IMG/VR virus record: IMGVR_UViG_3300047445_000186
Span: 129,829 to 193,828 of that record
Source of the DNA: a virus
Strand: one strand, 5' to 3'
Length of the DNA stretch: 64,000 nt
The notes under the pieces were generated by a model. The model worked only from the letters and a program-made list of their open reading frames with translations. It did not search any database and was not told the DNA's origin. Made by a program: the position numbers and the translations under genes. This document shows, piece by piece, positions 5,087-61,214 of this stretch. Each line of letters begins with the position of its first letter. Positions within the stretch are counted from its first letter, which is position 1.

Positions 5087-5427
5087 TGTCCGCTCAGTAC
5101 TACGTCTATCGAAATCTGCGAATTGAGAATACGTTCTCCGTAAGATTTCGTGGACGAGTAGTTGATCGCCTCACTGACTTCGTCGCGCGTAATGTGCGAT
5201 TCCAAGTCAGTGAGGTTGGTCGGCTTCGAGTCCTACGGGAAAGGCAGAAGAATGTTCACGCGTTCGTTCGGGCGCGAGAATACGAGCCTTTCGAATTCAA
5301 TGGATCTGGAATGAAGCAGATCTCATACAACCCATACAGAGCCAGCACGTTCATGTGCGATGGGGAACCAATCATGAAGGCAGACGTCGTTCTCTTTCGT
5401 GGAGGAAAGTGCTACCTAGTAGAATGA
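5086..5427 (+). CDS. hypothetical protein (113 aa)
   Basis: ORF with ATGA overlap to the upstream gene. Confidence 0.4.
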   Translation: MSAQYYVYRNLRIENTFSVRFRGRVVDRLTDFVARNVRFQVSEVGRLRVLRERQKNVHAFVRAREYEPFEFNGSGMKQISYNPYRASTFMCDGEPIMKADVVLFRGGKCYLVE

Positions 5428-28393: not shown

Positions 28394-29422
28394 ATGGAAC
28401 CGAAACTTCTGACACGCGATGCCTTCCGAGAAGGTGTGTTCGCACGGGACAAGCACAAGTGCGTGTTCTGCAGCGAGCCTGCTCAGGACGCGCATCACAT
28501 TCTCGAGCGCCGTCTTTGGCCTGATGGCGGGTACTACCTCGAGAACGGCGCGTCTGTTTGCGGTGAGCACCACATTCTGTGCGAGCAGACTGTCATTTCG
28601 GTCGAGCAAGTTCGCGATGCATGTGGCATTCGCCAACCGCACGTTCCTCCGCATTTCTACCCAGATCACCAGTACGACAAGTGGGGCAACCCTCTGCTCG
28701 ATGGTGGCAAGCGCGGTCGTGGTGAACTGTTCTTCGACGAGTCAGTCCAGAAGGTCCTTGGCCAAGGTGGCGTGCTCGATCTGTTCACGTTGTACGCGAA
28801 GTACGGACGGACGTTCCATCTGCCATGGTCTCCTGGCATTCACGACGATGACAAGGCGCTGAAGGACTGCACACAGTTCGAAGGTAAGCGCGTGATCATG
28901 TCGCTGAAAGCCGATGGTGAGAACACCACTGGGTACTCGGACGGGCACATTCATGCTCGCTCGATTGACAGCCGAGGCGGTGAAGATCGCGCTTGGGTGA
29001 AGCAATTCCTGTCTGAGAACGTGTGCTACAACTTGCCTGAAGGCTGGCGAATCTGCGGTGAAAATCTGTGGGCCGAGCACTCGATCAAGTACAGCGACTT
29101 GAAATCGTACTTCTACGGCTTCAGCCTGTGGAATGAACGGAACGTCTGCCTCTCGTGGGACGAGACGATCGAGTATTTCGCTCTGTTAAACGTCACTCCA
29201 GTCGACGTGCTCTATGACGGTATCTGGGACGAGGCTGCGATCAGGAAAATCGAGAAGACGCTTGATCTTGAGAAGGTTGAAGGGTACGTGATCCGACTCG
29301 CTGAAGCGTACCCGTACAGCCAATTCAAGAGCTCGATCGCGAAGTTCGTCCGACCCGGGCACGTACAGACATCTAAGCATTGGCGGGCAGGTAGCCGCTT
29401 CACACCGAACAAACTAGCATGA
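28394..29422 (+). CDS. HNH zinc-finger nuclease domain fused to Rnl2-like ATP-dependent RNA ligase
   Basis: N-terminus CVFCSEPAQDAHHILERRLWPDGGYYLENGASVCGEHH is an HNH motif. Then nucleotidyltransferase motif I SLKADGEN, motif IV VEGYVIR and motif V KFVR, as in T4 Rnl2-type ligases. Confidence 0.7.
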   Translation: MEPKLLTRDAFREGVFARDKHKCVFCSEPAQDAHHILERRLWPDGGYYLENGASVCGEHHILCEQTVISVEQVRDACGIRQPHVPPHFYPDHQYDKWGNPLLDGGKRGRGELFFDESVQKVLGQGGVLDLFTLYAKYGRTFHLPWSPGIHDDDKALKDCTQFEGKRVIMSLKADGENTTGYSDGHIHARSIDSRGGEDRAWVKQFLSENVCYNLPEGWRICGENLWAEHSIKYSDLKSYFYGFSLWNERNVCLSWDETIEYFALLNVTPVDVLYDGIWDEAAIRKIEKTLDLEKVEGYVIRLAEAYPYSQFKSSIAKFVRPGHVQTSKHWRAGSRFTPNKLA

Positions 29423-37871: not shown

Positions 37872-37971
37872 GCCTCTCGATTCGAGAGGCGTTATTTCAA
37901 AACGTGCAGATAGGATTCCGAGGAAAGCTGAAGGCCAGGATTCGGAGGAAGCAGTACGTTTTGAAATAACG
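37872..37971. promoter_or_regulatory. 19-nt perfect palindrome (GCCTCTCGATTCGAGAGGC), then a 14-nt inverted repeat (GTTATTTCAAAACG ... CGTTTTGAAATAAC) ending at the 5' end of the first tRNA
   Basis: Seen directly. Likely a transcription or processing signal for the tRNA array. Confidence 0.4.
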
Positions 37972-38046
37972 GGTCGTTGACAGAGCGGCAGATGTACCTC
38001 CCTCTTAAGGAGATCTAGCAGGGTTCGACTCCCTGGCGACCCACCA
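37971..38046 (+). tRNA. tRNA-Lys(CTT)
   Basis: Manual fold: acceptor GGGTCGT / GCGACCC, T-loop GGTTCGACTCC, anticodon loop CTCTTAA, CCA encoded. Confidence 0.6.
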
Positions 38047-38051
38047 AACAT

Positions 38052-38162
38052 GCCGAGATAGCACGATGGTCGTGCACTTTATGTAAGAGCGAGTGTCTAC
38101 GGGAAACACGGCACTTGACAGAAAAGAAACGGATGGTGGTTCAAATCCATCTCTTGGCGCCA
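38052..38162 (+). tRNA. atypical long tRNA-like gene (about 111 nt; type II or intron-containing, identity unresolved)
   Basis: Acceptor GCCGAGA / TCTTGGC, D-arm GCAC-GATGGTC-GTGC, T-arm GGTGG-TTCAAAT-CCATC, encoded CCA. About 39 extra nt lie between the D- and T-arms. Confidence 0.35.
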
Positions 38163-38168
38163 AACAAT

Positions 38169-38244
38169 GGGACTTTCGTATAGCTGGTGCGTACGGGAGC
38201 TTGAAAACCTTCAGGAAGCGGTTCGATTCCGCTAGGTCCCACCA
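38169..38244 (+). tRNA. tRNA-Phe(GAA)
   Basis: Acceptor GGGACTT / AGGTCCC, anticodon loop TTGAAAA, T-loop GGTTCGATTCC, CCA. Confidence 0.55.
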
Positions 38245-38248
38245 ATTT

Positions 38249-38323
38249 GCTTCGTTCGACTACCGGTTAGGTCGCTAGCCTTTCAAGCTGGAGAAACGGG
38301 TTCGACTCCCGTACGAAGCACCA
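38249..38323 (+). tRNA. tRNA-Glu(TTC)
   Basis: Acceptor GCTTCGT / ACGAAGC, anticodon stem CTAGC / GCTGG with loop CTTTCAA, T-arm ACGGG-TTCGACT-CCCGT. Confidence 0.55.
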
Positions 38324-38330
38324 GAACAAT

Positions 38331-38409
38331 AGGGTTGAAATCGAAGTGGCACGAGATACATGGCTTTGACCCATGGTAATATCAGGTTCGAGTCCTGACA
38401 GCCCTGCCA
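38331..38409 (+). tRNA. tRNA-Gln(TTG)
   Basis: Anticodon stem CATGG / CCATG with loop CTTTGAC, T-arm TCAGG-TTCGAGT-CCTGA, CCA. Confidence 0.55.
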
Positions 38410-38414
38410 AACAT

Positions 38415-38492
38415 ATCAGCGTCGTCTAAATGGTCTAGGACATCAGACTTTCAATCTGAGCAATGCGGGTTCAACTCCCGTCGCTGATGCCA
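38415..38492 (+). tRNA. tRNA-Glu(TTC) (second copy, different backbone)
   Basis: Acceptor ATCAGCG / CGCTGAT, anticodon stem TCAGA / TCTGA with loop CTTTCAA. Confidence 0.5.
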
Positions 38493-38498
38493 AACAAT

Positions 38499-38573
38499 AC
38501 CTTAGTAGCTCAGTGGTAGAGCACCGTCTTGATAAGGCGTAGGTCGTTGGTTCGATTCCAACTTAAGGTACCA
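38499..38573 (+). tRNA. tRNA-Ile(GAT)
   Basis: GCTCAGTGGTAGAGC D-arm, anticodon loop TTGATAA, T-loop GGTTCGATTCC. Confidence 0.6.
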
Positions 38574-38580
38574 GAATAAT

Positions 38581-38654
38581 GGGACGTTCGTATATGGGTA
38601 TTATGTGGCGCTGTCTACGCTACGAAACGGGTTCGAGTCCCGTACGTCCCGCCA
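38581..38654 (+). tRNA. tRNA-Asp(GTC)
   Basis: Acceptor GGGACGT / ACGTCCC, anticodon stem TGGCG / CGCTA with loop CTGTCTA. Confidence 0.6.
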
Positions 38655-38658
38655 AATT

Positions 38659-38733
38659 CGTGCGGTAGCATTATGGTAATGCGCCACCCTCATAAGGTGT
38701 CCCAAGTGGGTTCGATTCCCACCTGCACGACCA
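38659..38733 (+). tRNA. tRNA-Met(CAT) (or Ile2/initiator; CAT anticodon)
   Basis: D-stem GCAT / ATGC, anticodon loop CTCATAA, T-arm GTGGG-TTCGATT-CCCAC. Confidence 0.55.
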
Positions 38734-38744
38734 AGTGTCCTTTG

Positions 38745-38818
38745 CTCCGGTGTAGCTCAGCGGTAGAGCAGCTCGCTGTTAACGAGTTGGTCGTTGGTTC
38801 GATCCCAGCCTCCGGAGC
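38745..38818 (+). tRNA. tRNA-Asn(GTT)
   Basis: GCTCAGCGGTAGAGC D-arm, anticodon stem GCTCG / CGAGT with loop CTGTTAA. No CCA encoded. Exact 5' end uncertain. Confidence 0.5.
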
Positions 38819-38833
38819 AAAGAACATTTCTAT

Positions 38834-38928
38834 TCCCCTGTACTCTAATTGGTAAGAGACCTGGCTGTTAACCAGACGTAAAGGCCGTAAGGCGTAATAT
38901 GCAAGTTCGAAGCTTGCTGGGGGAGCCA
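38834..38928 (+). tRNA. type II (long variable arm) tRNA, anticodon loop CTGTTAA; isotype unresolved
   Basis: 95 nt. Acceptor TCCCCTG / TGGGGGA, T-arm GCAAG-TTCGAAG-CTTGC, variable arm of about 24 nt, CCA. Confidence 0.4.
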
Positions 38929-38978
38929 AGATTAAGAAACCTTACTCACGCGGTCACTCGCGGTCCCGTAGGGTTTAT

Positions 38979-39054
38979 GCGCGGTTAGCTCAGTTGGTAG
39001 AGCAAACGACCGATAATCGTTAGGTCGCTGGTTCGAATCCAGCACTGCGCACCA
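38979..39054 (+). tRNA. tRNA with GAT-like anticodon (loop CCGATAA, C33; Ile-like, identity uncertain)
   Basis: Acceptor GCGCGGT / ACTGCGC, GCTCAGTTGGTAGAGC D-arm, T-loop GGTTCGAATCC, CCA. Confidence 0.5.
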
Positions 39055-39062
39055 CAAATTAT

Positions 39063-39139
39063 GCCTCTTTAGCTCAACTGGATAGAGCACTGGCCTACGA
39101 AGCCGGGGGTTGCAGGTTCGAATCCTGTGAGAGGCACCA
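39063..39139 (+). tRNA. tRNA-Arg(ACG)
   Basis: Anticodon stem CTGGC / GCCGG with loop CTACGAA, T-loop GGTTCGAATCC, CCA. Confidence 0.6.
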
Positions 39140-39214
39140 GAATATTCCGACCGTCAGTGCAAGGTTATCCTTCTACGATTCCCCCTTGCGCGATCTCTTT
39201 GTCGGACGAAACAT

Positions 39215-39288
39215 AGGTCCTTGGTGTAATGGCAGCATGACGGTCTCCAAAACCGTTCGTGGGGGTTCGAGTCCCTCAGGACCTGCCA
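39215..39288 (+). tRNA. tRNA-Trp(CCA)
   Basis: Acceptor AGGTCCT / AGGACCT, anticodon stem ACGGT / ACCGT with loop CTCCAAA, T-arm GGGGG-TTCGAGT-CCCTC. Confidence 0.6.
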
Positions 39289-39357
39289 AGATAACGGTGC
39301 GTTTAGGAACGGACGCTTAATTGCCAACCCCACATAATCTGGCGGCCGAATAACAAT

Positions 39358-39432
39358 GTGCACTTGACAGAATGGTAATGTCGCTGGCTGCAACCCAGTT
39401 GTTCGGGGGTTCGATTCCCTCAGTGCACTCCA
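39358..39432 (+). tRNA. tRNA-Cys(GCA)
   Basis: Acceptor GTGCACT / AGTGCAC, anticodon stem GCTGG / CCAGT with loop CTGCAAC, CCA. Confidence 0.6.
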
Positions 39433-39588
39433 ATTACGACAGGAGCAAGGCGCCCTCGGGCTTGTGGCTAGCTGTGGAAAGTGACCCTCCACCTCCAACG
39501 TCGTTCCAATCAAAGCTTCGTCGTTCCATTCACACGGGTACGCGACTCCGTTTCTCGCAAGAGGTGCAGGGCGAAGCAACGCAATTAT

Positions 39589-39661
39589 AGGTGAGCCAGC
39601 GGCGCTGGACAAGAGCATCCAAAGCTCGAAGTTGGTAGTTCGACTCTGCCATCGCCTGCCA
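39589..39661 (+). tRNA. atypical tRNA-like gene A of a tandem pair (compact D-arm; anticodon loop ATCCAAA)
   Basis: Leader AATTATAGGTGA shared with the next copy. T-arm GGTAG-TTCGACT-CTGCC, encoded CCA. D-region is only CCAGCGGCGCTGG. Confidence 0.4.
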
Positions 39662-39666
39662 ATTAT

Positions 39667-39738
39667 AGGTGATCCATGGGCCGTGGACATGAGCCTCCAA
39701 AACTCGTTGGGACAGTTCGACTCTGTCATTGCCTGCCA
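39667..39738 (+). tRNA. atypical tRNA-like gene B of the tandem pair (anticodon loop CTCCAAA)
   Basis: Same architecture as copy A: AGGTGAT..., D-region CCATGGGCCGTGG, T-arm GACAG-TTCGACT-CTGTC, CCA. Confidence 0.4.
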
Positions 39739-39747
39739 AAATTTATG

Positions 39748-39822
39748 GTGTACGTAGTGTAGTGGTCTGCACCCTAGGCTGTGAACCTGGTAGTGGGAGT
39801 TCGATCCTCCTCGTACACCCCA
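39748..39822 (+). tRNA. tRNA-His(GTG)
   Basis: Acceptor GTGTACG / CGTACAC with an extra encoded G-1 and C73 discriminator. Anticodon stem CTAGG / CCTGG with loop CTGTGAA. Confidence 0.65.
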
Positions 39823-39827
39823 GAATA

Positions 39828-39903
39828 TGTTGCCTCGTGATATGGAAATCGCCCCTGGCTCTGACCCAGGTGGATGACGGTTCGATTCCGTCCGGGGTTG
39901 CCA
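39828..39903 (+). tRNA. tRNA-Gln(CTG)-like (acceptor stem poorly paired)
   Basis: Anticodon stem CCTGG / CCAGG with loop CTCTGAC, T-arm GACGG-TTCGATT-CCGTC, CCA. The 5' acceptor strand does not pair well. Confidence 0.4.
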
Positions 39904-39908
39904 AATAC

Positions 39909-39983
39909 GCCTTGTGAGTGAATGTGGAGAGCACAGCGGTTTCGTATTCCGCAGGACGCAGTTCGACTCTGCGACAAGGCACC
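39909..39983 (+). tRNA. tRNA-Thr(CGT)-like
   Basis: Acceptor GCCTTGT / ACAAGGC perfect, T-arm CGCAG-TTCGACT-CTGCG, anticodon region GCGG-TTTCGTATT-CCGC. Confidence 0.45.
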
Positions 39984-39991
39984 AGAATTAT

Positions 39992-40064
39992 TGGGGTATG
40001 ACATGGACGTTGGCCTGGGCTTTGACCCCGGTGCCGGTCGGTTCGATTCCGACTACCCTTGCCA
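39992..40064 (+). tRNA. tRNA-Gln(TTG)-like (imperfect acceptor)
   Basis: Anticodon stem CTGGG / CCCGG with loop CTTTGAC, T-arm GTCGG-TTCGATT-CCGAC, CCA. Confidence 0.4.
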
Positions 40065-40067
40065 AAC

Positions 40068-40145
40068 ACCGCATTAGCTCAACTGGATCAGAGCGTCGCA
40101 CTCCGAAGGCGACAGATGTGGGTTCGAATCCCATGTGTGGTACCA
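40068..40145 (+). tRNA. tRNA-Arg(CCG)
   Basis: GCTCAACTGGATCAGAGC D-arm, anticodon loop CTCCGAA, T-arm GTGGG-TTCGAAT-CCCAT, CCA. Confidence 0.55.
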
Positions 40146-40152
40146 AAATTAC

Positions 40153-40228
40153 GCCGTCATAGCTCAGTTGGTAGAGCAGTTCCTTGGTATGGAGAAGGTC
40201 AGGGGTTCGATTCCTCTTGACGGCACCA
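40153..40228 (+). tRNA. tRNA-Thr(GGT)
   Basis: Acceptor GCCGTCA / TGACGGC, GCTCAGTTGGTAGAGC D-arm, anticodon loop TTGGTAT, CCA. Confidence 0.6.
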
Positions 40229-40420
40229 GTTTAGCACATGCTCGGCATGATAACACAGGGTCATTGATCCGGACATGTTCGATCTGCGGTCTGACGTAGG
40301 AGTACGGCAAAGACAAGCTCGGAACGGGAACTCCCATGTGCTGATTCATTACTTGAAAGGAGCGCGTAATGCGTACGTCAGTTTCGACGCCTAGCGCGTC
40401 TGGTAAACGCCATACACTTT

Positions 40421-40496
40421 GGGTGTATGGCGTAAAGGTTAGCGCATCGGGCTTTTAACCCGTAAGGTCAGAGTTCGACTCTCTGTGCACCCACCA
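40421..40496 (+). tRNA. tRNA-Lys(TTT)
   Basis: Acceptor GGGTGTA / TGCACCC, anticodon loop CTTTTAA, T-arm CAGAG-TTCGACT-CTCTG, CCA. Confidence 0.55.
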
Positions 40497-43782: not shown

Positions 43783-43859
43783 GCCTCTGTAGCACAACTG
43801 GATAGTGCAGCCCTCTTCTAAAGGGTCCGTTGTAGGTTCAAATCCTATCAGAGGTACCA
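43783..43859 (+). tRNA. tRNA-Arg(TCT)
   Basis: Acceptor GCCTCTG / CAGAGGT, D-arm GCAC-AACTGGATA-GTGC, anticodon stem GCCCT / AGGGT with loop CTTCTAA, T-loop GGTTCAAATCC, CCA. Confidence 0.65.
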
Positions 43860-49530: not shown

Positions 49531-51150
49531 ATGAACATGTACACCGACCACGCCGCTTCTCTGAACGCCGTTCAGACTTCCACCCCACAGACGGAAGCAA
49601 TTCCTGGCCGCGAAGCCGAGATGAAGCTGAACAACGCTGGTGGATTCACGTTCACTCTTGATCAGTGGGGCGTCCTCGATCGCTTCATCATGATCGGTTC
49701 CGAGAACGGGAACTACTACGTCGGTCAAAAGGACGTGATGAAGCAATCGTTCGCGAACACCCTGAAGTGTATCGCTGAAGACGGTCTGCGTGCTGTCGCT
49801 CGTGCTCTCGAGTACTCAACCTCTGGTCGCGCTCCGAAGAACGACCCTGCTCTGGTTGTGCTCGCGCTCGCCGCATCGAAGGGAACGCCTGAAGTTCAAT
49901 CCGCTGCTTACGACGCCCTGCCAAAGGTCGCTCGTACCGGTACCCATCTGTTCACGTTCGTCTCGATTCTGAACTCCCTCGGGAAGTGGAACGCCGCTGC
50001 AAAGCGCGGCCTGGCGAAGTGGTACACGAACCGTTCGATCGACAAGCTCGCGATCCAAGTGCTGAAGTACCAGCAGCGCAATGGCTGGTCGCACCGCGAC
50101 GTCCTGCGTCTGGCACACGTGAAGCCGCAGAACGACATCCAGACGAATCTGTTCAAGTACATCACGAAGGGTGGCGACGCTCTCGTGCAAGGCTCGCCGA
50201 TTCCGCAGCTCGTGATCGACTTCGAATTCCTGAAGCGCGCCGAGTCGGCCAAGGATGTCGTTCGTCTGATCGAGTCGAATCCATCGATCGCATGGGAACT
50301 CGTTCCTACGCAATTCCTGAAGGATCCGGACGTGCTGATGGCGCTCCTCCCTTCGATGGGCATGACCGCTGTGATCCGTCAACTGGGTAAGCTCACTGCC
50401 GCTGGCGTGATCAAGCCGATGTCGGAAGGCGAGAAGTTGGTCGTCGCGAAGCTCTCGGATGCCGAAGCAATCAAGCGTGGCCGTGTCCATCCGATCACTA
50501 TCCTCCAAGCCCTGAAGCAGTACCAAGCTGGTCATGGTGAAAAGGGTTCGTTGGTCTGGTCTCCAGTTCAACGCGTCGTGTCGGCCCTGGATGACTCGTT
50601 CTACTCTGCGTTCACGCTTGGCGAGGACAAGAAGGAGAATCACTTCATCGCTTGCGACATCTCCGGCTCCATGACCATGGACAGCGCGAAGGTGATCGGT
50701 TCGCCGAACCTCTTGGCTGGTGAAGTGGCTGCGGTGTTCGCGATGGCGATCGCTCGTACCCAATCGAACTATTTCCTCGCTGGTTTCAAGCAGAACTTGG
50801 AACCACTGAAGATCTCGCCGACGATGCGTCTCGCTGACGCGTTGAACGCAATGCGTGCTATGCACTGGCAAGGCGGCTCGACCGACTGTGCTAAGGCATT
50901 CGAGTACGCGCTCCAGAACGGTATCGCGGTGGACAAGTTCACCGTGATTACCGACAATGAAACGTACGCGGGTGGCCAAGCCCCAGTGCAGGCGCTCAAG
51001 AAGTATCGTGACCGTACTGGTCGCGCTGCGAAGTCGATCGTGATTGCTACCTCGGTATCTGAATTCACGATCGCCGATCCGAAGGACGGTGGTATGTTGG
51101 ACATCGCAGGGTTTGACTCGGCTGCTCCACAGATCATCGCTGATTTCTAA
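49531..51150 (+). CDS. rsr: Ro60/Rsr-like protein (TROVE-type N-terminal region + C-terminal vWA domain with MIDAS)
   Basis: 539 aa. MIDAS DxSGSM (IACDISGSMTMDS) about 385 aa in, then T and D positions as in Ro60. RBS AGGAGAG. The large helical N-terminal domain was not verified. Confidence 0.55.
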   Translation: MNMYTDHAASLNAVQTSTPQTEAIPGREAEMKLNNAGGFTFTLDQWGVLDRFIMIGSENGNYYVGQKDVMKQSFANTLKCIAEDGLRAVARALEYSTSGRAPKNDPALVVLALAASKGTPEVQSAAYDALPKVARTGTHLFTFVSILNSLGKWNAAAKRGLAKWYTNRSIDKLAIQVLKYQQRNGWSHRDVLRLAHVKPQNDIQTNLFKYITKGGDALVQGSPIPQLVIDFEFLKRAESAKDVVRLIESNPSIAWELVPTQFLKDPDVLMALLPSMGMTAVIRQLGKLTAAGVIKPMSEGEKLVVAKLSDAEAIKRGRVHPITILQALKQYQAGHGEKGSLVWSPVQRVVSALDDSFYSAFTLGEDKKENHFIACDISGSMTMDSAKVIGSPNLLAGEVAAVFAMAIARTQSNYFLAGFKQNLEPLKISPTMRLADALNAMRAMHWQGGSTDCAKAFEYALQNGIAVDKFTVITDNETYAGGQAPVQALKKYRDRTGRAAKSIVIATSVSEFTIADPKDGGMLDIAGFDSAAPQIIADF

Positions 51151-52504: not shown

Positions 52505-52580
52505 CCCGAACCCTGGTTCACCCGAGCGTTCCTAGGCTGTATAGTCTAGGAACGCTTTCTTCATTCAGGTGTAGATCTTT

Positions 52581-52947: not shown

Positions 52948-53613
52948 ATGAACCAATTCCAAAAGCTCCTGATTTCAGCTCGGTACTGGTTGCTCGGAAT
53001 GGCCGAGCACGACCCGAAGTACTTCAAAGTCATTGAGGCCATGGAGCTTGGCCTTGAGCATCACGACGGCCATCGCAATGGTGGCGACCCAGAGTTCGTG
53101 CATCAGCTCGGCATCTTCCACTATCTGCGGACGATGCACAAACACATCCGCAACCCCGTGACCGTGTACATGCTGGTCTTCCTGCATGACGCGCTCGAGG
53201 ATCCGAATCAGCAGTCGAAGAAGGAAGGCAAGCCGCGGTACATCGCGCCTTCCGAGATCAGCGAGCAGTTCGGTGATGCCTTCCTCGTGAAGCTCAAGAA
53301 GATGTCCAAGGAAATCCTCGGCCAGACGAATCCTGACTTCTCCCTTGACGTGGTCTTCTCCGATGAGGACACCAGCGTTGCGAAGGGCGGCGATCGAGTG
53401 AACAACGTTTCCTCGATGATTGGCGTGTTCAAGCGCCCGCGACTGATCAAGTACGTGAAGGAAACCGTCGAGGAATTCTTCCCACGTCTGAAGCGCTCAC
53501 GTCGTCTGTTCGCTGATCAAGAGTCGATCTACGAGAACATGAAGCTTGAGCTGTCGACGCAGATCGGTTTGATTCAACACATCCTCGATGGGTACGTTCC
53601 CCATGAACAATAA
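52948..53613 (+). CDS. small alarmone (p)ppGpp hydrolase, HD domain (Mesh1/SpoT-hydrolase-like)
   Basis: EHHDGHRNGGDPEFVHQL matches the RelA/SpoT hydrolase motif H..GQ.RKSGEPYI.H. Downstream ED...D. About 221 aa. Confidence 0.6.
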   Translation: MNQFQKLLISARYWLLGMAEHDPKYFKVIEAMELGLEHHDGHRNGGDPEFVHQLGIFHYLRTMHKHIRNPVTVYMLVFLHDALEDPNQQSKKEGKPRYIAPSEISEQFGDAFLVKLKKMSKEILGQTNPDFSLDVVFSDEDTSVAKGGDRVNNVSSMIGVFKRPRLIKYVKETVEEFFPRLKRSRRLFADQESIYENMKLELSTQIGLIQHILDGYVPHEQ

Positions 53614-53941: not shown

Positions 53942-54504
53942 CAGTGAAAATGATCCTTGCTGTTGATCAAGGGAACGCGATCGGCTGGCAAGATGGGCGC
54001 CTGCCCTGGAAGATTTCGCGTGACATGCTCCGCTTCAAGGCGCTCACAACGGGTAGTACTGTTGTGATGGGTCGGAAGACGTTCGAGAGCCTTGGCCGCC
54101 CGCAAGGTCTGCCGAATCGGCAGAACGTCGTGATCACCACGCAGAAGCACGACATGACCGGGAATCCGCTGTTCTTCCGCGATGGCAAGGATCCGTTCCG
54201 CTCGTTCGTGCAAGTGCATCAAGCGTGCCTTGGCTGCGAACCCGCGGATCTGTGGGTGATTGGTGGTGGAACGCTGTACGATGCAGCTATCGAACAGAGC
54301 TTGGTCGATGAGATTTATCTGACGCTGGTGCACACCAATTCGGGTGCTGATGTTCAGTTGAAGCATGATCTCGCGGCATGGAAGCTGTTCGTTCTGCGCG
54401 AGCAAAGCCGAGGAAATATCTGGAACGTCGCCGAGTACGAGCAACACCAGGTAGAGGGCGATGTTCCCGCGGTAACTTTCATCACTTTAAAGAAACAAAA
54501 ATGA
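53938..54504 (+). CDS. folA: dihydrofolate reductase
   Basis: ILAVDQGNAIGWQDGRLPW...VVMGRKTFESLGRP...NVVIT...LWVIGGGTLY match the FolA core. GTG 53938 or ATG 53950. Confidence 0.9.
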   Translation: MTVKMILAVDQGNAIGWQDGRLPWKISRDMLRFKALTTGSTVVMGRKTFESLGRPQGLPNRQNVVITTQKHDMTGNPLFFRDGKDPFRSFVQVHQACLGCEPADLWVIGGGTLYDAAIEQSLVDEIYLTLVHTNSGADVQLKHDLAAWKLFVLREQSRGNIWNVAEYEQHQVEGDVPAVTFITLKKQK

Positions 54505-54926
54505 ATCCGTTCAAGCGCACTGGTTTCGATTCGATCATTGGCAAGGGCATGGTCGTTCTTGGCGATCTTCTCCTGCAAGAAGGCACAACCACTGTGATTG
54601 ACGGCACGCTAGCCGGTCAAGACATCCGCGTTCATAACACGACCCCTGACAAGGTTGATGTGAAGACCACTCTCGTCGTTGGCGGATCGGTTTCAATCGC
54701 GCGTGGTGATCTGAATTCCGGTGGCACGATCCGAGTGCCGAACGTGACGGTCGCTGGTGTCCTCGAATGCGAAACGCTGATCTGCGAAGGCCGCCTCGCT
54801 CTGAAGGCTGGTGCGAAGATCGTTGCGAAACAGATCCAGTACCGTGACATCGTGATCGAGAACGGCGCAATCGTTCTGAGTCAAATGATGCACCTTGATC
54901 ACATCTCTGCCGGGGAGCAGACCTAA
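54501..54926 (+). CDS. bactofilin-like protein
   Basis: ATGA overlap with folA. Repetitive beta-helix pattern (IIGKGMVVLGDL..., IDGTLAGQDIRV, VVGGSVSIARGDL, IRVPNVTVAGVLECETLICEGRLALKAGAKIVA). Confidence 0.55.
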   Translation: MNPFKRTGFDSIIGKGMVVLGDLLLQEGTTTVIDGTLAGQDIRVHNTTPDKVDVKTTLVVGGSVSIARGDLNSGGTIRVPNVTVAGVLECETLICEGRLALKAGAKIVAKQIQYRDIVIENGAIVLSQMMHLDHISAGEQT

Positions 54927-55540: not shown

Positions 55541-57499
55541 ATGTCAGCTCTCAAGTCTCTCTCGGCGAAATACGCAGAGAAATTCGCAGCACCGGAAGTC
55601 ATGTCGCTCGAAGCGTACCTGGACCTGTGCAAAACCGAACCTCTGGCATATGCCACCGCCGCAGAGCGGATGGTCGCAGCCATTGGCCAACCTGTTGTGG
55701 TTGACACGTCGGAAGACCCACGTCTCTCGCGCATCCACAGCAACAAGAAGATCCGCACGTACGATGCATTCAAGGAATACTACGGCGGTGAAGATCAGAT
55801 CGAACGTCTCGTTGCGTACTTCCGCAATGCAGCCGCAGGTCTGGAAGAATCGAAGCAGATTCTGTACCTGAAGGGTCCAGTCGGCGGCGGGAAGTCCAGC
55901 CTGGTCGAGCTCCTGAAGGCTCTGATGGAAAAGCACCCGTTCTACGCTCTGTACGATGCGAGCGAAAAGGATGCGGAACTGCGGACCTCGCCAGTGTTCG
56001 AATCGCCGCTCGGTCTGTTCAACAAGCACGACCCCGATCACCAAGCGGTTCTCGCTGACTCGGGCATCCCAGTGGGCTACGCTGGTCAAGCAGTTCTGTC
56101 GGGCTGGGCACTGAAGAAGCTCGAAGAATTCGGCGGCGACATCACGCGTTTCAGCGTCGTGAAGCTCTGGCCGAACAAGGACACGCAAGTCGGCGTGATG
56201 AAGGTCGAGCCGGGCGACGAGAACAACCAAGACGTCTCTGTGCTGGTCGGCAAGACTGATCTGCGGAAGCTCGAGAAGTTCAGCCAGAATCACCCGTACG
56301 CTTACACATACGGTGGTGGTCTGAATCGCACGAACCAAGGCCTGATGGACTTCGCCGAAATGTTCAAGGCGAACATCAAGACGCTGAACCCGTTGCTGAT
56401 GGCTACGCAAGAGCACAACTACAACGGTACCGAAGCGATCCCAGCGATGCCTTACACCGGCATTATCTGCGCGCACAGCAACGAGTCCGAGTGGTTCGCG
56501 TTCAAGAACAACAAGACGAACGAAGCGTTCCTTGACCGTGTGTACATCGTGGACGTGCCGTACTGCCTCCGCGTCGACGAAGAAGTGAAGATCTATCAGA
56601 AGCTGATCGCGGGCTCCTCGCTCTCGAAGGCACCGATGGCTCCGTACACTCTCGAGCTGCTCGCTCAGTGGATGGTTCTGACTCGCCTGAAGGAGCCAGA
56701 GAACTCGACGCTGATGGCGAAGATGAAGGTCTATAACGGCGAGAACGTGAAGGACACGATGCCGAACGCAAAGCCGTACGAAGAGTACCGCGATGCTGCC
56801 GGGAACGACGAAGGTATGAGCGGCCAAAGCACTCGATTCGCGTTCAAGATCCTGTCGCAATCGTTCGATCTGCGCCCTGAAGAACAACAGGCAAACCCTG
56901 TGGATCTGATGTACGTGATCGACGCCGCGGTCAAGAAGGAATCGCTGCCGGAAGAAACCGAGAAGAAGCTCCTGACGCTGATCAAGGATCTGCAACGGAA
57001 GTACTTCGATTTCCTCGAAAAGGAACTGCGCGCTGCCTACCTCGACTCGTTCAACAGCTTCGGCCAGAACATGTTCGATCGGTACTTCCTGTTCGCTGAA
57101 GCCTGGATTGCTGATGAGCAATGCCGCGATCCGGAAACTCATCAGATGATGAACCGCGAGAAGCTGAACGCAGCTCTCGAAGAGACCGAAAAGCCGGCTG
57201 GGATCGTGAATGCCAAGGACTTCCGGAACGAGATCGTGAACTACGTGCTGCGGTACAAGAACAAGCACGACGTCGCTCCTCGCTGGAACGAGTACGAGAA
57301 GATCAAGGTCGTGCTCGAGAAGCGGATGTTCAGCGCAACCGAGAACATCATGCCAGTCGTGTCGTTCGGTCCGAAGGGTGACAAGGAAGCTGAAGAGAAG
57401 CACACGAAGTTCGTCGAGCGCATGATCGAGAACGGGTACAGCGAAAACCAAGTGAAGATCCTGGTGTCCTGGTGGTCGCAAAACAAGAAAGCTGCATAA
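55541..57499 (+). CDS. prkA: PrkA/YeaG-family serine protein kinase (AAA+ N-terminus)
   Basis: AYATAAERM, DPRLSRIHSN and Walker A QILYLKGPVGGGKSSLVELLK are near-identical to E. coli YeaG / B. subtilis PrkA. 652 aa. RBS present. Confidence 0.95.
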   Translation: MSALKSLSAKYAEKFAAPEVMSLEAYLDLCKTEPLAYATAAERMVAAIGQPVVVDTSEDPRLSRIHSNKKIRTYDAFKEYYGGEDQIERLVAYFRNAAAGLEESKQILYLKGPVGGGKSSLVELLKALMEKHPFYALYDASEKDAELRTSPVFESPLGLFNKHDPDHQAVLADSGIPVGYAGQAVLSGWALKKLEEFGGDITRFSVVKLWPNKDTQVGVMKVEPGDENNQDVSVLVGKTDLRKLEKFSQNHPYAYTYGGGLNRTNQGLMDFAEMFKANIKTLNPLLMATQEHNYNGTEAIPAMPYTGIICAHSNESEWFAFKNNKTNEAFLDRVYIVDVPYCLRVDEEVKIYQKLIAGSSLSKAPMAPYTLELLAQWMVLTRLKEPENSTLMAKMKVYNGENVKDTMPNAKPYEEYRDAAGNDEGMSGQSTRFAFKILSQSFDLRPEEQQANPVDLMYVIDAAVKKESLPEETEKKLLTLIKDLQRKYFDFLEKELRAAYLDSFNSFGQNMFDRYFLFAEAWIADEQCRDPETHQMMNREKLNAALEETEKPAGIVNAKDFRNEIVNYVLRYKNKHDVAPRWNEYEKIKVVLEKRMFSATENIMPVVSFGPKGDKEAEEKHTKFVERMIENGYSENQVKILVSWWSQNKKAA

Positions 57500-57576
57500 G
57501 CTAAAGCAGCTCTGAGAGGGTGAAGGCGGAGTGGAGGATATCCCTCCGCCTTCTTTAGTTTCGAACTAGGACAAGT

Positions 57577-58950
57577 ATGGAAAAGCTTCCAGTAGCAACA
57601 TATATTTTCGTGGATCGTCGGAAGACGGGCCGCGGCAAGTCGCTTCCGAATCGTCATCGTCTGCTGCGTCGGATTAAGGACGCGATCCGCGCATCGCAAC
57701 CGCAGGACATCGATGCTGGTGGTGTGAAGGGCGCTGCATCTCCGCAATCGGCATCATCTGGGAACGCCGTGAAGGTCACGCGGAACTCACTGCATGAGCC
57801 GACGTTTCATTACGCGAGCGGTACCGGGAATCACAACATCGTTCTGATCGGAAATGATCAGTGGGAACGTGGTGATGACTTCCCTCTGAGTGATGAAGAC
57901 TCGGGTGCAGGGAACGGCCAAGGCGGACCAGGCGACGATGGTGAAGACGACTTCATCGTGAACATCTCGCGTGATGAGTTCTACAATGTGTTCTTCGAAG
58001 ATTGCGAGCTGCCGAATCTGCAAGAGACGCATGAGAAGGAACTGCCTGAGATGGTTCCAAAGCACGCTGGCTTCCAGAAGGAAGGTAACCCAGCGCAGCT
58101 GAACGTGATTCGCTCGTACAAGAACGCGCTGCCACGCCGTCGTGCGCTGACCACCGAAGCACGTGAACAGCTCGAGGAACTTGAGGCCGAGTACGAGAAG
58201 CTCATGAATGAGCTGGGCTCGCAGTTCACGCTCGCATCGCGCGCTGAAGTGATCCAAGACCGGATGGCCGAGATTGAAGAGCAGATCACTGCACTCCGCA
58301 GTCGGATCAGTGCTGTGCCGTTCTTCGAGAAGCTCGATCTGCGGTACACGAAGAAAGAGAAGGTCATGGTGAAGTCGGCTGACGCCGTGTTCATCATGCT
58401 CATGGACATCTCTGGTTCGATGGACGAGACCAAGAAGCGTCTTGCACGAAAGTTCTTCTCGCTTCAGTACGCGTTCATCAAGCGTAAGCACCCAGGTACG
58501 GACCTCGTGTTCGTGGCGCACACTGAAACGCCTGTTGAAATGCAGGAAGAAGAGTTCTTCACGACCCGTAAGAACGGTGGCACGATCGTTTCGCCAGCGT
58601 ACAAGCTCGTGAATGATATCGTGAAGGCGCGGTACGACGCAACGCAGACGAATCTCTATCTGTCGCAAGCATCTGACGGTGACAACTGGGACGATGACAA
58701 TGCGGAGATCATTCCAGAACTCGAGGACAGTGGCCTGCTCTCAAAGCTCCGTCACATGAGCTACGTTCAGGTCGGTGTTCCGTACGACTACGGCGGCTAC
58801 TCGTTCGGTACCTCGATGTTGACGCTGTGGACGACTCTGACGTCGATCGCGAACACATCGAAGAAGCTCTCGATGGTCAAGATCGCTGATGACACGCAAG
58901 TGTTCGACGCGTTCCACAAGATCTACAAGAAGAGCAATCAGACGAAATGA
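57577..58950 (+). CDS. yeaH: YeaH/YhbH-family protein (DUF444, vWA-like)
   Basis: VFIMLMDISGSMDE, FFTTRKNGGTIVSPAYKL and YLSQASDGDNWDDD are conserved YeaH blocks. 457 aa. Confidence 0.9.
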   Translation: MEKLPVATYIFVDRRKTGRGKSLPNRHRLLRRIKDAIRASQPQDIDAGGVKGAASPQSASSGNAVKVTRNSLHEPTFHYASGTGNHNIVLIGNDQWERGDDFPLSDEDSGAGNGQGGPGDDGEDDFIVNISRDEFYNVFFEDCELPNLQETHEKELPEMVPKHAGFQKEGNPAQLNVIRSYKNALPRRRALTTEAREQLEELEAEYEKLMNELGSQFTLASRAEVIQDRMAEIEEQITALRSRISAVPFFEKLDLRYTKKEKVMVKSADAVFIMLMDISGSMDETKKRLARKFFSLQYAFIKRKHPGTDLVFVAHTETPVEMQEEEFFTTRKNGGTIVSPAYKLVNDIVKARYDATQTNLYLSQASDGDNWDDDNAEIIPELEDSGLLSKLRHMSYVQVGVPYDYGGYSFGTSMLTLWTTLTSIANTSKKLSMVKIADDTQVFDAFHKIYKKSNQTK

Positions 58951-59019
58951 AGTCACAACCCGGTCTTCGCAAGTACCGGGTTGTTTACTGAATATGATAG
59001 ACTGATCATAAGGACTTAA

Positions 59020-60564
59020 ATGGACAAACTCGTCATTGACTCTCGCACCGACTGGACGCCTGAAATCCTGCGCCGTGCTTGGGACGAAATTGCAAAGATC
59101 TCGGTCGAAGAGCTCGAGCTGGTTCCTGGCAAGGACCTGTACCCGAATCAGTTCGAGATCGTTTCGGCCGAGCAGATGCTCGATGCGTACGCCTCGATCG
59201 GTCTGCCAGTGCACTACAATCACTGGAGCTTCGGCAAGGAATTCCTGCAGAACCAGAAGTCGTACGAGAAGGGCCAATCCGGCCTGGCGTACGAAATGGT
59301 CATTAACAGCAATCCTTGCGTGAACCTGTTGATGGAAGAGAACCTTGCGTACATGCAAGTGATGGTCATGGCGCACGCTGGCGTCGGCCATAACGCAGTG
59401 TTCGCGAACAACGTGTACTTCAAGGAGTGGACGGCTGCAGGTTCGATCATCGACTACATGCTGTTCGCACGTGACTACATCCGCCATTGCGAAGAGCGGT
59501 ACGGCGAGCGTGAAGTTGAAGAGGTGCTCGATGCTGCGCACTCCCTCGCATCGCACGGGATTGATAAGTACAAGCGGAAGCATCGTCCGCATCTGAGCGA
59601 AGAGCAACGTCTGAAGAAGCTCATGAGCGCCGATGACCAGCGCCAGCGTGAACTCGACGTGATCATGCTGAAGACGTCGCTGAATCGCGCCGATGAAGAA
59701 GAACTGATGCTCGACGAAGGCGAATCGTTCGAAGACGGCGAAGAGAATCTGCTGTACTTCATCATGAAGAAGTCGCCGAATCTCGAGCGTTGGAAGCGCG
59801 AAGTTATCCGGATCGTGCACAAGATCAATCAGTACTTCTCGCCGCAAGGTCCGACGAAGACTCTGAATGAAGGTTGCGCCACGTTCTGCCACTGGTACAT
59901 CATGAAGCGTCTCGAAGAAAAGGGTATTATCACCCCCGACGCGTACATGGCTTATCTGCACTCGCACAGCGGCGTGGTCTTCCAACCGTCGTACAAGAGC
60001 AAGTACTACAGCGGCCCGAACCCGTACGCCCTTGGGTTCAACATCCTGAAGGACGTGAAGCGGATCTGCGAAGGCGGTGAATGGATCGAGAAGTCTAGTG
60101 GTCGTGAATGGGTCGCTATCACCGACGAAGACCGCGCATGGATGCCACATCTGGTCGGCAAGCGCTGGCAAGACATGATCAAGGAAGCTTCGTTCGAACA
60201 CCGTGATGACTCGTTCATCCAGCAGTACCTGTCGCCGAAGGTCATTCGTGACATGAAGCTCTTCACTGTCGGAATTCGGTACTCGGAAGACGAAGACTAC
60301 AAGCACCCGACTGCTACGGCTACGGTTGACGAGATTCACGATGACCTCGGTTACGCGAACATTCGGACTGCTCTGGCTCGCTCGAAGGAACGCGTGAACT
60401 ACGTCCCGCAGATCGTGGTCGTGGACGCTGATTTGGAAGGTGACCGCACTCTCCATCTGCGGTACGATTCGTACATGGGCCGTGAGCTCGATGAGTCTGA
60501 CGCCGAAGAAGTCGTGCAGTACCTGGACTTCCTCTGGGGTTACCCAGTCAGGCTCGAAGCATGA
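59020..60564 (+). CDS. spoVR: SpoVR/YcgB-family protein
   Basis: GLAYEMVINSNPCVNLLMEENLAYMQVMVMAHAGVGHNAVFANNVYF is a conserved SpoVR/YcgB block. 514 aa. Confidence 0.9.
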   Translation: MDKLVIDSRTDWTPEILRRAWDEIAKISVEELELVPGKDLYPNQFEIVSAEQMLDAYASIGLPVHYNHWSFGKEFLQNQKSYEKGQSGLAYEMVINSNPCVNLLMEENLAYMQVMVMAHAGVGHNAVFANNVYFKEWTAAGSIIDYMLFARDYIRHCEERYGEREVEEVLDAAHSLASHGIDKYKRKHRPHLSEEQRLKKLMSADDQRQRELDVIMLKTSLNRADEEELMLDEGESFEDGEENLLYFIMKKSPNLERWKREVIRIVHKINQYFSPQGPTKTLNEGCATFCHWYIMKRLEEKGIITPDAYMAYLHSHSGVVFQPSYKSKYYSGPNPYALGFNILKDVKRICEGGEWIEKSSGREWVAITDEDRAWMPHLVGKRWQDMIKEASFEHRDDSFIQQYLSPKVIRDMKLFTVGIRYSEDEDYKHPTATATVDEIHDDLGYANIRTALARSKERVNYVPQIVVVDADLEGDRTLHLRYDSYMGRELDESDAEEVVQYLDFLWGYPVRLEA

Positions 60565-61120: not shown

Positions 61121-61214
61121 CGTTCAGCTGTTCCATTGAAAATTCCGTTGTAAATAGAGTTCCACCGTTGCTTTTGACGGTGGAACTTTTATTGCTTTTA
61201 CAAAGGAAAATTTC

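Follow-up and report, generated by a model that had tools for sequence, protein, structure and literature searches.

The prkA-yeaH-spoVR genes and their surroundings

The window, by which we mean the entire 64,000-nucleotide stretch of DNA analyzed here, contains three adjacent and co-oriented genes whose order, prkA-yeaH-spoVR, matches that of bacterial operons. These genes and the features around them are as follows.

52524–52557, plus strand: terminator-like hairpin with a 15-bp stem, the probable upstream boundary of the cassette's transcription unit
52948–53613, plus strand: HD-domain protein of 221 aa, a putative small alarmone ((p)ppGpp) hydrolase
53950–54504, plus strand: dihydrofolate reductase (folA-like; PF00186, 7e-32), conserved in 27 related loci
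54501–54926, plus strand: bactofilin-family beta-solenoid protein of 141 aa
54926–55410, plus strand: insertion of two small ORFs (76 and 85 aa) separating the bactofilin gene from prkA
55541–57499, plus strand: prkA/yeaG homologue, 652 aa, with an AAA+ ATPase domain and a PrkA C-terminal domain
57522–57553, plus strand: stem-loop between prkA and yeaH; its outer stem is GC-rich and 10 bp long, and a T-rich tract comes after it
57577–58950, plus strand: yeaH/yhbH homologue (DUF444), 457 aa
58956–58983, plus strand: 9-bp stem-loop between yeaH and spoVR, followed by TTTACT
59020–60564, plus strand: spoVR/ycgB homologue, 514 aa
60561–61120, plus strand: two small ORFs specific to this phage (66 and 120 aa), each with a 4-nt overlap between its start and the stop codon before it
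61156–61189, plus strand: terminator-like hairpin with a 15-bp stem, the probable end of the transcription unit

A preliminary description of this DNA had read the three ORFs as a complete cassette of PrkA/YeaG, YeaH/DUF444, and SpoVR/YcgB in bacterial operon order. Profile searches bore this out, as all three families are represented by full-length members, and the order is that of the Pararhizobium and Sphingobium operons that we compared. PrkA covers positions 1–357 of 358 in PF08298 (AAA_PrkA; 4e-145, 484 bits, cut-off 25) and 1–255 of 255 in PF06798 (PrkA; 8e-58, 197 bits, cut-off 25), YeaH covers positions 1–417 of 418 in PF04285 (DUF444; 3e-111, 373 bits, cut-off 27), and SpoVR matches PF04293 (SpoVR; 2e-131, 439 bits, cut-off 27) and PF24755 (SpoVR_C; 2e-18, 66 bits, cut-off 27.6). 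These scores are far above the chance level. Among PDB entries, 9xip is a relative of the window's PrkA (3e-52).

The same description called the proteins high-identity homologues, which was an overstatement: identity to bacterial proteins is 53–57% for PrkA, 42–45% for SpoVR, and 29–37% for YeaH. PrkA scored 912.6 bits against the NCBIfam equivalog NF011999, above the cut-off of 576. The best NCBIfam model for YeaH, NF003707, gave 381.7 bits, narrowly under the equivalog cut-off of 396, indicating that YeaH is a diverged member of its family. SpoVR reached 588 against the equivalog NF008737 (cut-off 679); judged by its Pfam match it belongs to the family, having diverged from the bacterial equivalog.

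On alignment, the Walker A motif, the MIDAS residues, and the equivalent of Lys-426 of Escherichia coli YeaG are all conserved. [quoted passage not shown] PrkA Lys-436 aligns with YeaG Lys-426, the residue replaced in the catalytically defective K426A mutant, and is a lysine in 36 of the 38 sequences. Structure models show a C-terminal vWA domain in YeaH with predicted MIDAS residues D277-x-S279-x-S281, Thr-336, and Asp-367, following an N-terminal half that is disordered or coiled-coil. They also show a zincin-like metallopeptidase fold in SpoVR, a protein that no paper found in our literature search ties to zincins. Phage and bacterial proteins have 102 invariant positions in common in SpoVR and 59 in PrkA. 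One invariant SpoVR motif is H119-A120-x-x-x-H124, with alanine where HExxH (or HExxxH) has the catalytic glutamate; because its metal motif lacks this residue, SpoVR may not be a peptidase. The designation of PrkA as a serine kinase in the preliminary description is contested, as kinase activity was reported in E. coli and two Bacillus studies saw none (PMC9512850, PMC13001217). A reported protease activity is likewise disputed and was not convincing in Bacillus (PMC9512850, PMC13001217). One study classes the AAA+ domain as YME1-like, within clade III (PMC13001217).

The neighbors named earlier, namely the dihydrofolate reductase gene, the bactofilin-family gene, and the two small ORFs before prkA, are real. 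Those two ORFs have no homologue in any related locus and were found only in this phage. The HD-domain gene keeps its place ahead of the cassette in 18 related viral loci. Pfam HD is matched weakly by 13 of 17 family members, and a search of PDB with the family profile returned Rel/RelA hydrolase domains, small alarmone hydrolases, and MESH1 and nothing else, at weak E values of 2.6e-4 to 0.025; we treat the small alarmone hydrolase assignment as putative. In 19 related loci the bactofilin gene immediately precedes prkA; it is missing from one subclade that retains the cassette. PF04519 (Bactofilin) is matched by 16 of the 17 family sequences (the window copy and 16 relatives; best 7e-11); the window's own 141-aa protein has no Pfam Bactofilin match and only a weak one to FapA. 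Bacillus YhbE/YhbF also precede prkA. Profile comparison revealed no specific relationship between them and the phage bactofilin (probability 5–12%), and the shared neighborhood may be coincidence.

The segment from 52.5 to 61.2 kb is bracketed by terminator-like hairpins, and the spacers inside the cassette are structured, with minimum free energies of −29 kcal/mol (prkA-yeaH) and −22 kcal/mol (yeaH-spoVR). An Rfam scan returned tRNAs only. No sigma-54 consensus site was found ahead of prkA, and over the whole window such matches were no more frequent than chance; the phage cassette thus appears to be outside the starvation-responsive NtrC/sigma-54 control seen in E. coli. A CTTTAGYTT motif near prkA and yeaH was ruled out as a general promoter, as it occurs only three times. 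Relatives conserve a GCATAGAATA-like motif ahead of prkA, which the window lacks.

Phage origin and inheritance of the cassette

The preliminary description had placed the cassette in a phage-like genome, and our analysis supports this. The window holds an array of 20 tRNAs, and its PHROG and Pfam content is typical of jumbo-phage accessory regions, with housekeeping genes absent. The best matches of its RNA ligase are in the jumbo phages RsoM2USA (62%), SCTP-2 (60%), and CcrSC (54%). PrkA was found on 30 IMG/VR viral contigs at 63–82% identity; across viral and metagenomic relatives its identity is 63–84%, compared with 56–57% for the best bacterial match. Among the best 120 listed for each cassette protein, the 90%-identity clusters lie on contigs of at most 373 kb, many of them 310–373 kb, and the window's SpoVR is carried on a contig of 331,776 bp; we estimate the phage genome at roughly 330–370 kb. 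Neither capsid nor terminase genes were found within the 64-kb window, and the RsoM2USA terminase, used as bait against the cassette-bearing IMG/VR contigs, recovered three unrelated contigs only and no hallmark link. A megablast search of 50,697 phage records (INPHARED) with the cassette as query gave no match, indicating that the window's phage is not in that collection. The tRNA array, the gene content, and the closest relatives indicate that the window is jumbo-phage DNA from an accessory arm and not bacterial chromosome.

All 30 related viral contigs carry the cassette, with the gene order unchanged in each case that offers enough flanking sequence, and the ORFs are intact. In neighbor-joining trees with few bacterial sequences, monophyly of the clade is recovered in 100, 98, and 100 of 100 bootstrap replicates for the three proteins, and every tree resolves the same three subclades; a search of representatives clustered at 50% identity lacked the resolution to position the clade relative to bacteria. 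The median dN/dS is 0.17–0.22, falling to 0.04–0.09 in the closest pairs, and synonymous sites are saturated within the clade. Homing endonucleases have inserted between cassette genes in relatives that still retain the cassette, and the SpoVR of one close relative is split by an intein. The codon usage of the cassette (RSCU) correlates with that of the other window genes (r = 0.94), and in base composition, too, it now agrees with the phage genome.

The congruent gene trees and a dN/dS of about 0.2 indicate a single old capture followed by inheritance as a unit. The genes had been proposed to work as a unit, and they behave as one in their congruent trees, their co-inheritance, and the 4-nt overlap of yeaH and spoVR in many relatives. 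The capture can be assigned, from these comparisons, to an ancestor of a large uncultured jumbo-phage clade, with a proteobacterial-type operon as the source. Taken together, the identity of the trio and its inheritance within the phage clade are conclusions that we hold with high confidence.

Proposed role and competing explanations

The yeaG-yeaH-ycgB (prkA-yhbH-spoVR) module occurs widely among bacteria, where it has been linked to sporulation, stress tolerance, and survival under starvation. To our knowledge, its mechanism has been unsettled since the 1990s. The three genes show cofitness in six bacteria (10.1101/072470), and YeaG and YeaH were described as a “metabolic brake” that promotes quiescence in nitrogen starvation (PMC10954441).

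In bacteria, the trio works in a single pathway that quiesces metabolism in nitrogen starvation and other kinds of growth arrest. PrkA would be the AAA+ ATPase motor of a predicted complex, YeaH its protein-binding part by virtue of the vWA/MIDAS domain, on analogy with MoxR-type AAA+/vWA pairs, and SpoVR the contributor of a zincin-like domain; the three would form an ATP-driven protein-remodeling or processing complex. The phage would express its own copy during infection from a phage transcription unit, thereby overriding the host's starvation brake, by setting or by releasing it, and depriving the host of control over its own state, and a slow, resource-hungry jumbo-phage infection could then be completed in nutrient-limited cells. 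We propose phage control of quiescence because the cassette has no sigma-54/NtrC-type promoter, belongs to a phage unit, and has genes for a putative (p)ppGpp hydrolase, a dihydrofolate reductase, and a bactofilin upstream. The suggestion in the preliminary description that the element may import or override host stress signaling is a reasonable one, and the conservation of the putative hydrolase strengthens it. We regard the explanation as a whole (trio identity, clade inheritance, remodeling complex, and control of host starvation) as evenly poised between right and wrong, and the host-physiology mechanism, taken alone, as a tentative proposal that is somewhat more doubtful. A bolder version sees a “split” FtsH-like quiescence-switch machine, composed of an AAA+ unfoldase (PrkA), a vWA/MIDAS adaptor (YeaH), and a zincin-like subunit (SpoVR), which giant phages would have captured repeatedly, in at least three to four lineages, and which here would be linked with an alarmone hydrolase, leaving the virus and not the cell to decide whether a starving host stays metabolically active; we consider it unlikely in this full form.

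The trio, possibly with the bactofilin, might instead act on phage proteins in assembly, maturation, or the spatial organization of infection, leaving host physiology aside. The position of the bactofilin gene before prkA in the 19 loci and the drift of phage YeaH and SpoVR below the bacterial equivalog cut-offs speak for such a role. The positions held invariant between phage and bacterial SpoVR and PrkA suggest, in contrast, bacterial-like partners or chemistry; moreover, one subclade keeps the cassette without the bactofilin, and the same module occurs in lineages with unrelated virion architectures (Thermus phages and megaphages). We judge this phage-intrinsic role to be rather improbable.

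Slightly less probable still, in our estimate, is that the phage copies antagonize the host, disturbing its YeaG pathway or an alarmone-based dormancy or abortive infection and so preventing shutdown. The putative alarmone hydrolase conserved in the same block fits this reading, as does the harm that YeaG- and YeaH-driven quiescence would do to a lytic phage (PMC10954441). A simple inactive decoy is nevertheless unlikely, as all catalytic and binding motifs are kept, and no significant match to a PADLOC defense model was obtained: PrkA and SpoVR matched none, and YeaH matched only PbcC (E = 0.002). Such antagonism differs from the host-override explanation mainly in the sign of the effect.

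We also considered whether the window could come from a bacterial chromosome or plasmid, or be a bacterial contig placed in the wrong bin, with the cassette being the host's own operon. One close relative was deposited within an “Acinetobacter sp.” metagenome-assembled genome, the window lacks capsid and terminase genes, and the record of Enterobacter phage LAU1 shows that a host yeaG-yeaH can enter a “phage” record. However, the Acinetobacter contig is 36.6 kb long and syntenic with viral contigs, and the tRNA array, gene content, RNA ligase matches, and viral relatives all indicate a phage. The size ceiling of the listed cluster carriers, the lower identity of bacterial PrkA, and the homing endonucleases and SpoVR intein in relatives also argue against a bacterial origin, making it very improbable. 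Least probable is a neutral passenger, that is, recently acquired host DNA without function for the phage: host-derived genes do accumulate in jumbo-phage accessory regions, but purifying selection on all three genes, ORFs intact in all relatives, a deep clade with saturated synonymous sites, ameliorated codon usage, and retention despite homing endonuclease insertions refute it as far as sequence analysis goes.

A clade of phages of roughly 330–370 kb thus keeps an intact trio under purifying selection, and other giant-phage lineages carry their own versions. Control of host quiescence, if true, would be a new class of host-physiology module among the targets of jumbo phages. The phage setting offers two handles on the module: an infection phenotype to seek, RsoM2USA being culturable, and a concrete structural hypothesis in the form of an AAA+/vWA/zincin-like complex.

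Comparison with known systems

The window cassette has the same families, order, orientation, and motifs as the proteobacterial operons of Pararhizobium (WI754_RS29185-95) and Sphingobium (TomTYG64_33990-70), whereas in E. coli the module is split into yeaGH and ycgB. It differs from the proteobacterial operons in being phage-encoded amid phage accessory genes, in the structured hairpins between its genes, in having no sigma-54/NtrC-type promoter, and in the scores of YeaH and SpoVR below the equivalog cut-offs. MoxR-type AAA+/vWA pairs (NorQ-NorD) and the AAA+ zinc proteases FtsH and YME1 serve only as comparisons of how the complex might work, as PrkA is a non-MoxR protein with an extra C-terminal kinase-like domain and SpoVR lacks HExxH.

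The preliminary description implied that the cassette was new to phages and suggested a look at other phage genomes. That comparison recovered homologous cassettes, already deposited, in RsoM2USA, megaphages, and Thermus phages, so the implied novelty does not hold; our literature search found no paper describing the phage cassette as a module. RsoM2USA (MG752970), an isolated 344-kb jumbo myovirus of Ralstonia (PMC8504454), carries the full cassette in the same order as ORF30-ORF29-ORF28. In the paper on this phage, PrkA and SpoVR appear in separate functional tables, and no module is discussed (PMC8504454). Its backbone is related to that of the window phage, as seen in the RNA ligase, and its cassette proteins are 51%, 35%, and 48% identical to those of the window, no closer than bacterial ones, and fall outside the window clade. 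The RsoM2USA SpoVR is 56% identical to a Vibrio protein (PMC8504454), a resemblance that suggests a separate capture or a very deep divergence.

The uncultured megaphages LR745206, LR756502, LR756504, and LR756511 (595–642 kb) also carry prkA, yeaH, and spoVR. The three genes are contiguous and in the window order in LR745206 and LR756511, whereas in LR756502 spoVR lies 245 kb from prkA-yeaH. In the trees, LR756502 falls among proteobacterial sequences and outside the window clade. Small neighbor-joining trees would place the captures in RsoM2USA and the megaphages as independent ones. In the Thermus phages phiYS40, TMA, phiLo, Lalka, and MN1, a PrkA-like “serine kinase,” a SpoVR-like protein, and a DUF444-like protein are adjacent; the order is yeaH-spoVR-prkA, identity to the window proteins is only 24–29%, and PrkA is as far diverged from the window's PrkA as is the Bacillus protein. 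On these comparisons, the Thermus phage cassette is clearly an independent acquisition of a different subtype.

Jumbo phages of one clade share a co-inherited PrkA-YeaH-SpoVR module

The cassette comprises three consecutive genes, which we recovered at exactly the coordinates and on the strand reported in the preliminary description of a complete stress-kinase cassette in a phage-like genome.

55541-57499, + strand: prkA/yeaG homologue, 652 aa, full length (Pfam AAA_PrkA 4e-145, PrkA 8e-58)
57577-58950, + strand: yeaH homologue, 457 aa, full length (Pfam DUF444 3e-111)
59020-60564, + strand: spoVR homologue, 514 aa, full length (Pfam SpoVR 2e-131, SpoVR_C 2e-18)

PrkA scored 913 bits, above the NCBIfam equivalog cut-off of 576, and YeaH (382 bits, cut-off 396) and SpoVR (588 bits, cut-off 679) fell somewhat below their NCBIfam cut-offs. 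Identity to the bacterial proteins is 53-57% for PrkA, 42-45% for SpoVR, and 29-37% for YeaH; the earlier wording of "high identity" was generous. PrkA retains residues of the kind whose loss would have counted against the preliminary reading: in an alignment of 38 sequences, the Walker A positions G112, P113, K118, and S119 are invariant, and K436, the equivalent of E. coli YeaG K426, is a lysine in 36 of the 38. The K426A mutant of YeaG serves as a catalytically defective control (PMC10954441). A PDB relative of PrkA, 9xip (3e-52), is entitled "Serine protein kinase." YeaG is a kinase according to reports, but the biochemistry of the family is disputed: B. subtilis PrkA showed slow ATP-dependent protease activity and no kinase activity (PMC9512850), and B. 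anthracis PrkA, described as a YME1-like clade III AAA+ protein, showed neither activity (PMC13001217). The designation "Ser kinase" is therefore an annotation only and not an established property.

In SpoVR, 102 positions are invariant across phage and bacterial sequences. Among them is H119-A-x-x-x-H124, where the catalytic Glu of HExxH is missing, so that peptidase activity of this protein is uncertain. A literature search for a link between SpoVR and zincins, whose metallopeptidase fold the SpoVR model resembles, found none.

The order prkA, yeaH, spoVR was found in every related viral locus with enough flanking sequence, and all of the ORFs are intact. In neighbor-joining trees of the individual proteins, 100, 98, and 100 of 100 bootstraps supported the clade, and each tree contained the same three subclades; in many relatives, the yeaH and spoVR reading frames share 4 nt. 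These observations bear out the earlier proposal that the three genes form a unit. Median dN/dS was 0.17-0.22 (0.04-0.09 in the closest pairs), with synonymous sites near saturation, and the codon usage of the cassette matches that of the remaining window (RSCU r = 0.94).

In several relatives, GIY-YIG-like homing endonuclease ORFs lie between its genes, as in four of the loci compared:

L012, 7613-8062: GIY-YIG-like homing endonuclease ORF
L028, 11878-12543: GIY-YIG-like homing endonuclease ORF
L033, 12009-12815: GIY-YIG-like homing endonuclease ORF
L029, 11973-12527: GIY-YIG-like homing endonuclease ORF

In a further locus (L007, 12017-17394), an unrelated ORF interrupts yeaH, leaving it as two ORFs, and all three genes are set apart by large ORFs. 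One SpoVR homologue of 872 aa (P0225) contains an intein, and three PrkA homologues of 943-957 aa (P0242-P0244) carry inserts of ~300 aa at three different sites of the AAA+ domain; one insert lies close to Walker A, and one includes a LAGLIDADG domain. The cassette persists despite homing endonucleases, a split yeaH, and inteins, and the view that it is neutral passenger DNA is effectively excluded. On the sequence comparisons, the simplest account is that the cassette was captured once, long ago, and then passed on vertically as a functional unit.

Viral origin of the window

The possibility that the window is a fragment of a bacterial chromosome, raised in the preliminary description as grounds for rejecting its reading, was examined, and the evidence indicates that the DNA is viral. 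The larger ORFs match phage families, including a nuclease, dNMP phosphatases, and tail-fiber-like proteins, and no housekeeping genes were found among the window ORFs. Several features are listed here.

5355-6383, + strand: NinI-like Ser/Thr phosphatase (phrog_246, 6e-52)
8408-9502: tRNA nucleotidyltransferase (phage-family match)
28394-29422: RNA ligase (phrog_24030, 5e-137)
37971-40496, + strand: tight 2.5-kb array of 19 of the 20 tRNA genes
43783-43859, + strand: the remaining tRNA gene
49531-51150, + strand: Ro60/TROVE protein (vWA_Ro60 domain; conserved in 23 related viral loci)

The tRNA set includes duplicated Glu, Ile, Asn, Lys, and Thr tRNAs and three Arg isoacceptors. An Rfam scan of the window at gathering thresholds detected no other RNA family and no Y-RNA-like family. 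Among 50,697 phage records, the best matches of the RNA ligase were jumbo phages: RsoM2USA (62%), Salicola SCTP-2 (60%), and Caulobacter CcrSC (54%). A weak point is that the 64-kb window contains no capsid or terminase gene, and an attempt to link cassette-bearing contigs to a terminase found no link.

In IMG/VR, 30 viral contigs encode PrkA with 63-82% identity, several of them on contigs of 147-368 kb; bacterial PrkA proteins reach 56-57% at most. Among the best 120 clusters per protein from a collection of 5.8 billion proteins, the contigs encoding cassette proteins are no longer than 373 kb, and many measure 310-373 kb; the SpoVR of the window itself sits on a contig of 331,776 bp. This plateau is expected of complete genomes of ~330-370 kb and not of bacterial chromosomes. 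The only match in 185,579 GTDB species genomes was a 36.6-kb contig of an "Acinetobacter sp." MAG (L035, NZ_JAZQPV010000081.1), syntenic with the viral contigs across Ro60, the HD protein, bactofilin, and the cassette. It is probably a phage contig mis-binned with a bacterial genome, and its assignment could hint at the phage host. Bacterial contamination as the source of the cassette is effectively excluded.

The window also holds unusual accessory genes (an H-NS C-terminal domain, SPFH, fatty-acid desaturases, and Asp/Arg hydroxylases). The RNA ligase, the tRNA nucleotidyltransferase, and a "Swiss Army Knife RNA repair" HAD domain point to a theme of RNA repair. One of 48 window ORFs scanned together weakly matched the T7 gp0.7-type protein kinase family (phrog_15752, 3e-7); with the NinI-like phosphatase, it may represent further phospho-signaling genes in the phage.

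Neighboring genes and transcription signals

Upstream of the cassette, the clade shares the order NUDIX, HNH, Ro60/TROVE, 221-aa HD protein, DHFR, and bactofilin. The neighbors named earlier, DHFR, the bactofilin-family protein, and two small ORFs before prkA, are real.

52948-53613, + strand: 221-aa HD protein, two genes upstream of bactofilin, conserved in 18 related viral loci
53950-54504: DHFR
54501-54926, + strand: 141-aa bactofilin-family protein, the immediate upstream neighbor of prkA in 19 phage loci
61215-62117, + strand: 300-aa protein, K1 capsule-lyase domain at its C terminus (PF24146, 2e-15)

Pfam HD matches to the 221-aa protein were weak. A profile of 17 members matched only (p)ppGpp-hydrolase domains in the PDB, namely Rel/RelA (2.6e-4 and 7e-4), small alarmone hydrolases, and human MESH1, and the protein is therefore a putative phage alarmone hydrolase. 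Pfam Bactofilin was matched by 16 of 17 family sequences (the window copy plus 16 relatives; best 7e-11), the window's own copy giving only a weak β-solenoid match. In Bacillus licheniformis (L040, 1860-3286), a gene annotated as polymer-forming cytoskeletal (bactofilin-type) lies two genes upstream of prkA; this gene and the next are presumably yhbE/yhbF, as in B. subtilis. Profile comparison revealed no specific kinship of the phage and Bacillus bactofilins, and the shared neighborhood may be a coincidence.

Hairpins resembling terminators, each with a 15-bp stem, were located at 52524-52557 and 61156-61189, and smaller stem-loops follow prkA and yeaH. This arrangement points to a single ~8.6-kb transcription unit that is attenuated internally. 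The capsule-lyase-domain protein, which is tail-fiber/depolymerase-like and directly follows the cassette terminator, is not conserved in related loci. No sigma-54 site was found upstream of the window prkA. In relatives (L005, L008-L012, L016, L017, L020-L022, and L033), a conserved GCATAGAATA / ACATAAAATA motif that resembles an extended -10 element occurs 45-55 nt upstream of prkA. The motif is missing from the window, as two window-specific ORFs occupy this place, and it shows no enrichment in the window.

Possible role and cassettes in other phages

In E. coli, yeaGH is activated by NtrC, and during nitrogen starvation YeaG and YeaH "function as a metabolic brake" (PMC10954441); a study that reported cofitness of yeaG, yeaH, and ycgB in six bacteria proposed a single conserved pathway (10.1101/072470). 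In the phage, PrkA, YeaH, and SpoVR would form an ATP-driven AAA+/vWA/zincin-like complex. By expressing the cassette under its own control, the phage would set the starvation or quiescence state of the host, plausibly jointly with the neighboring putative alarmone hydrolase. Rival explanations assign the cassette a phage-intrinsic role in assembly, or one as an antagonist or in anti-defense. The module first described, functional-looking and inherited jointly, is confirmed as an observation, and its interpretation is partly supported. The fold assignments supply a testable mechanism.

Homologous cassettes, which had been suggested as a check, do occur in other phage genomes, and the module recurs and stays conserved in giant phages. 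The Enterobacter phage LAU1 record (L002, MN688132.1, 1-3308) is prophage-like and opens with yeaG-yeaH, next to tail genes of opposite orientation; the gene pair is most likely host flank within a prophage-derived record. The Ralstonia jumbo phage RsoM2USA, a culturable carrier, has the full cassette (ORF30-29-28), with proteins 51%, 35%, and 48% identical to those of the window; the paper on this phage tabulates PrkA and SpoVR separately and does not comment on them (PMC8504454). In thinly sampled trees, RsoM2USA and megaphage LR756502 group among proteobacterial sequences, outside the window clade, which suggests separate captures. In megaphages LR745206 and LR756511 the three genes are contiguous, the LR756511 cassette being divergent; LR756502 has prkA-yeaH as a pair, and its spoVR lies at another place in the genome. 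In Thermus phages (phiYS40, TMA, phiLo, and others), where the annotations read "serine kinase" and "stage V sporulation protein R," the order is instead yeaH-spoVR-prkA.
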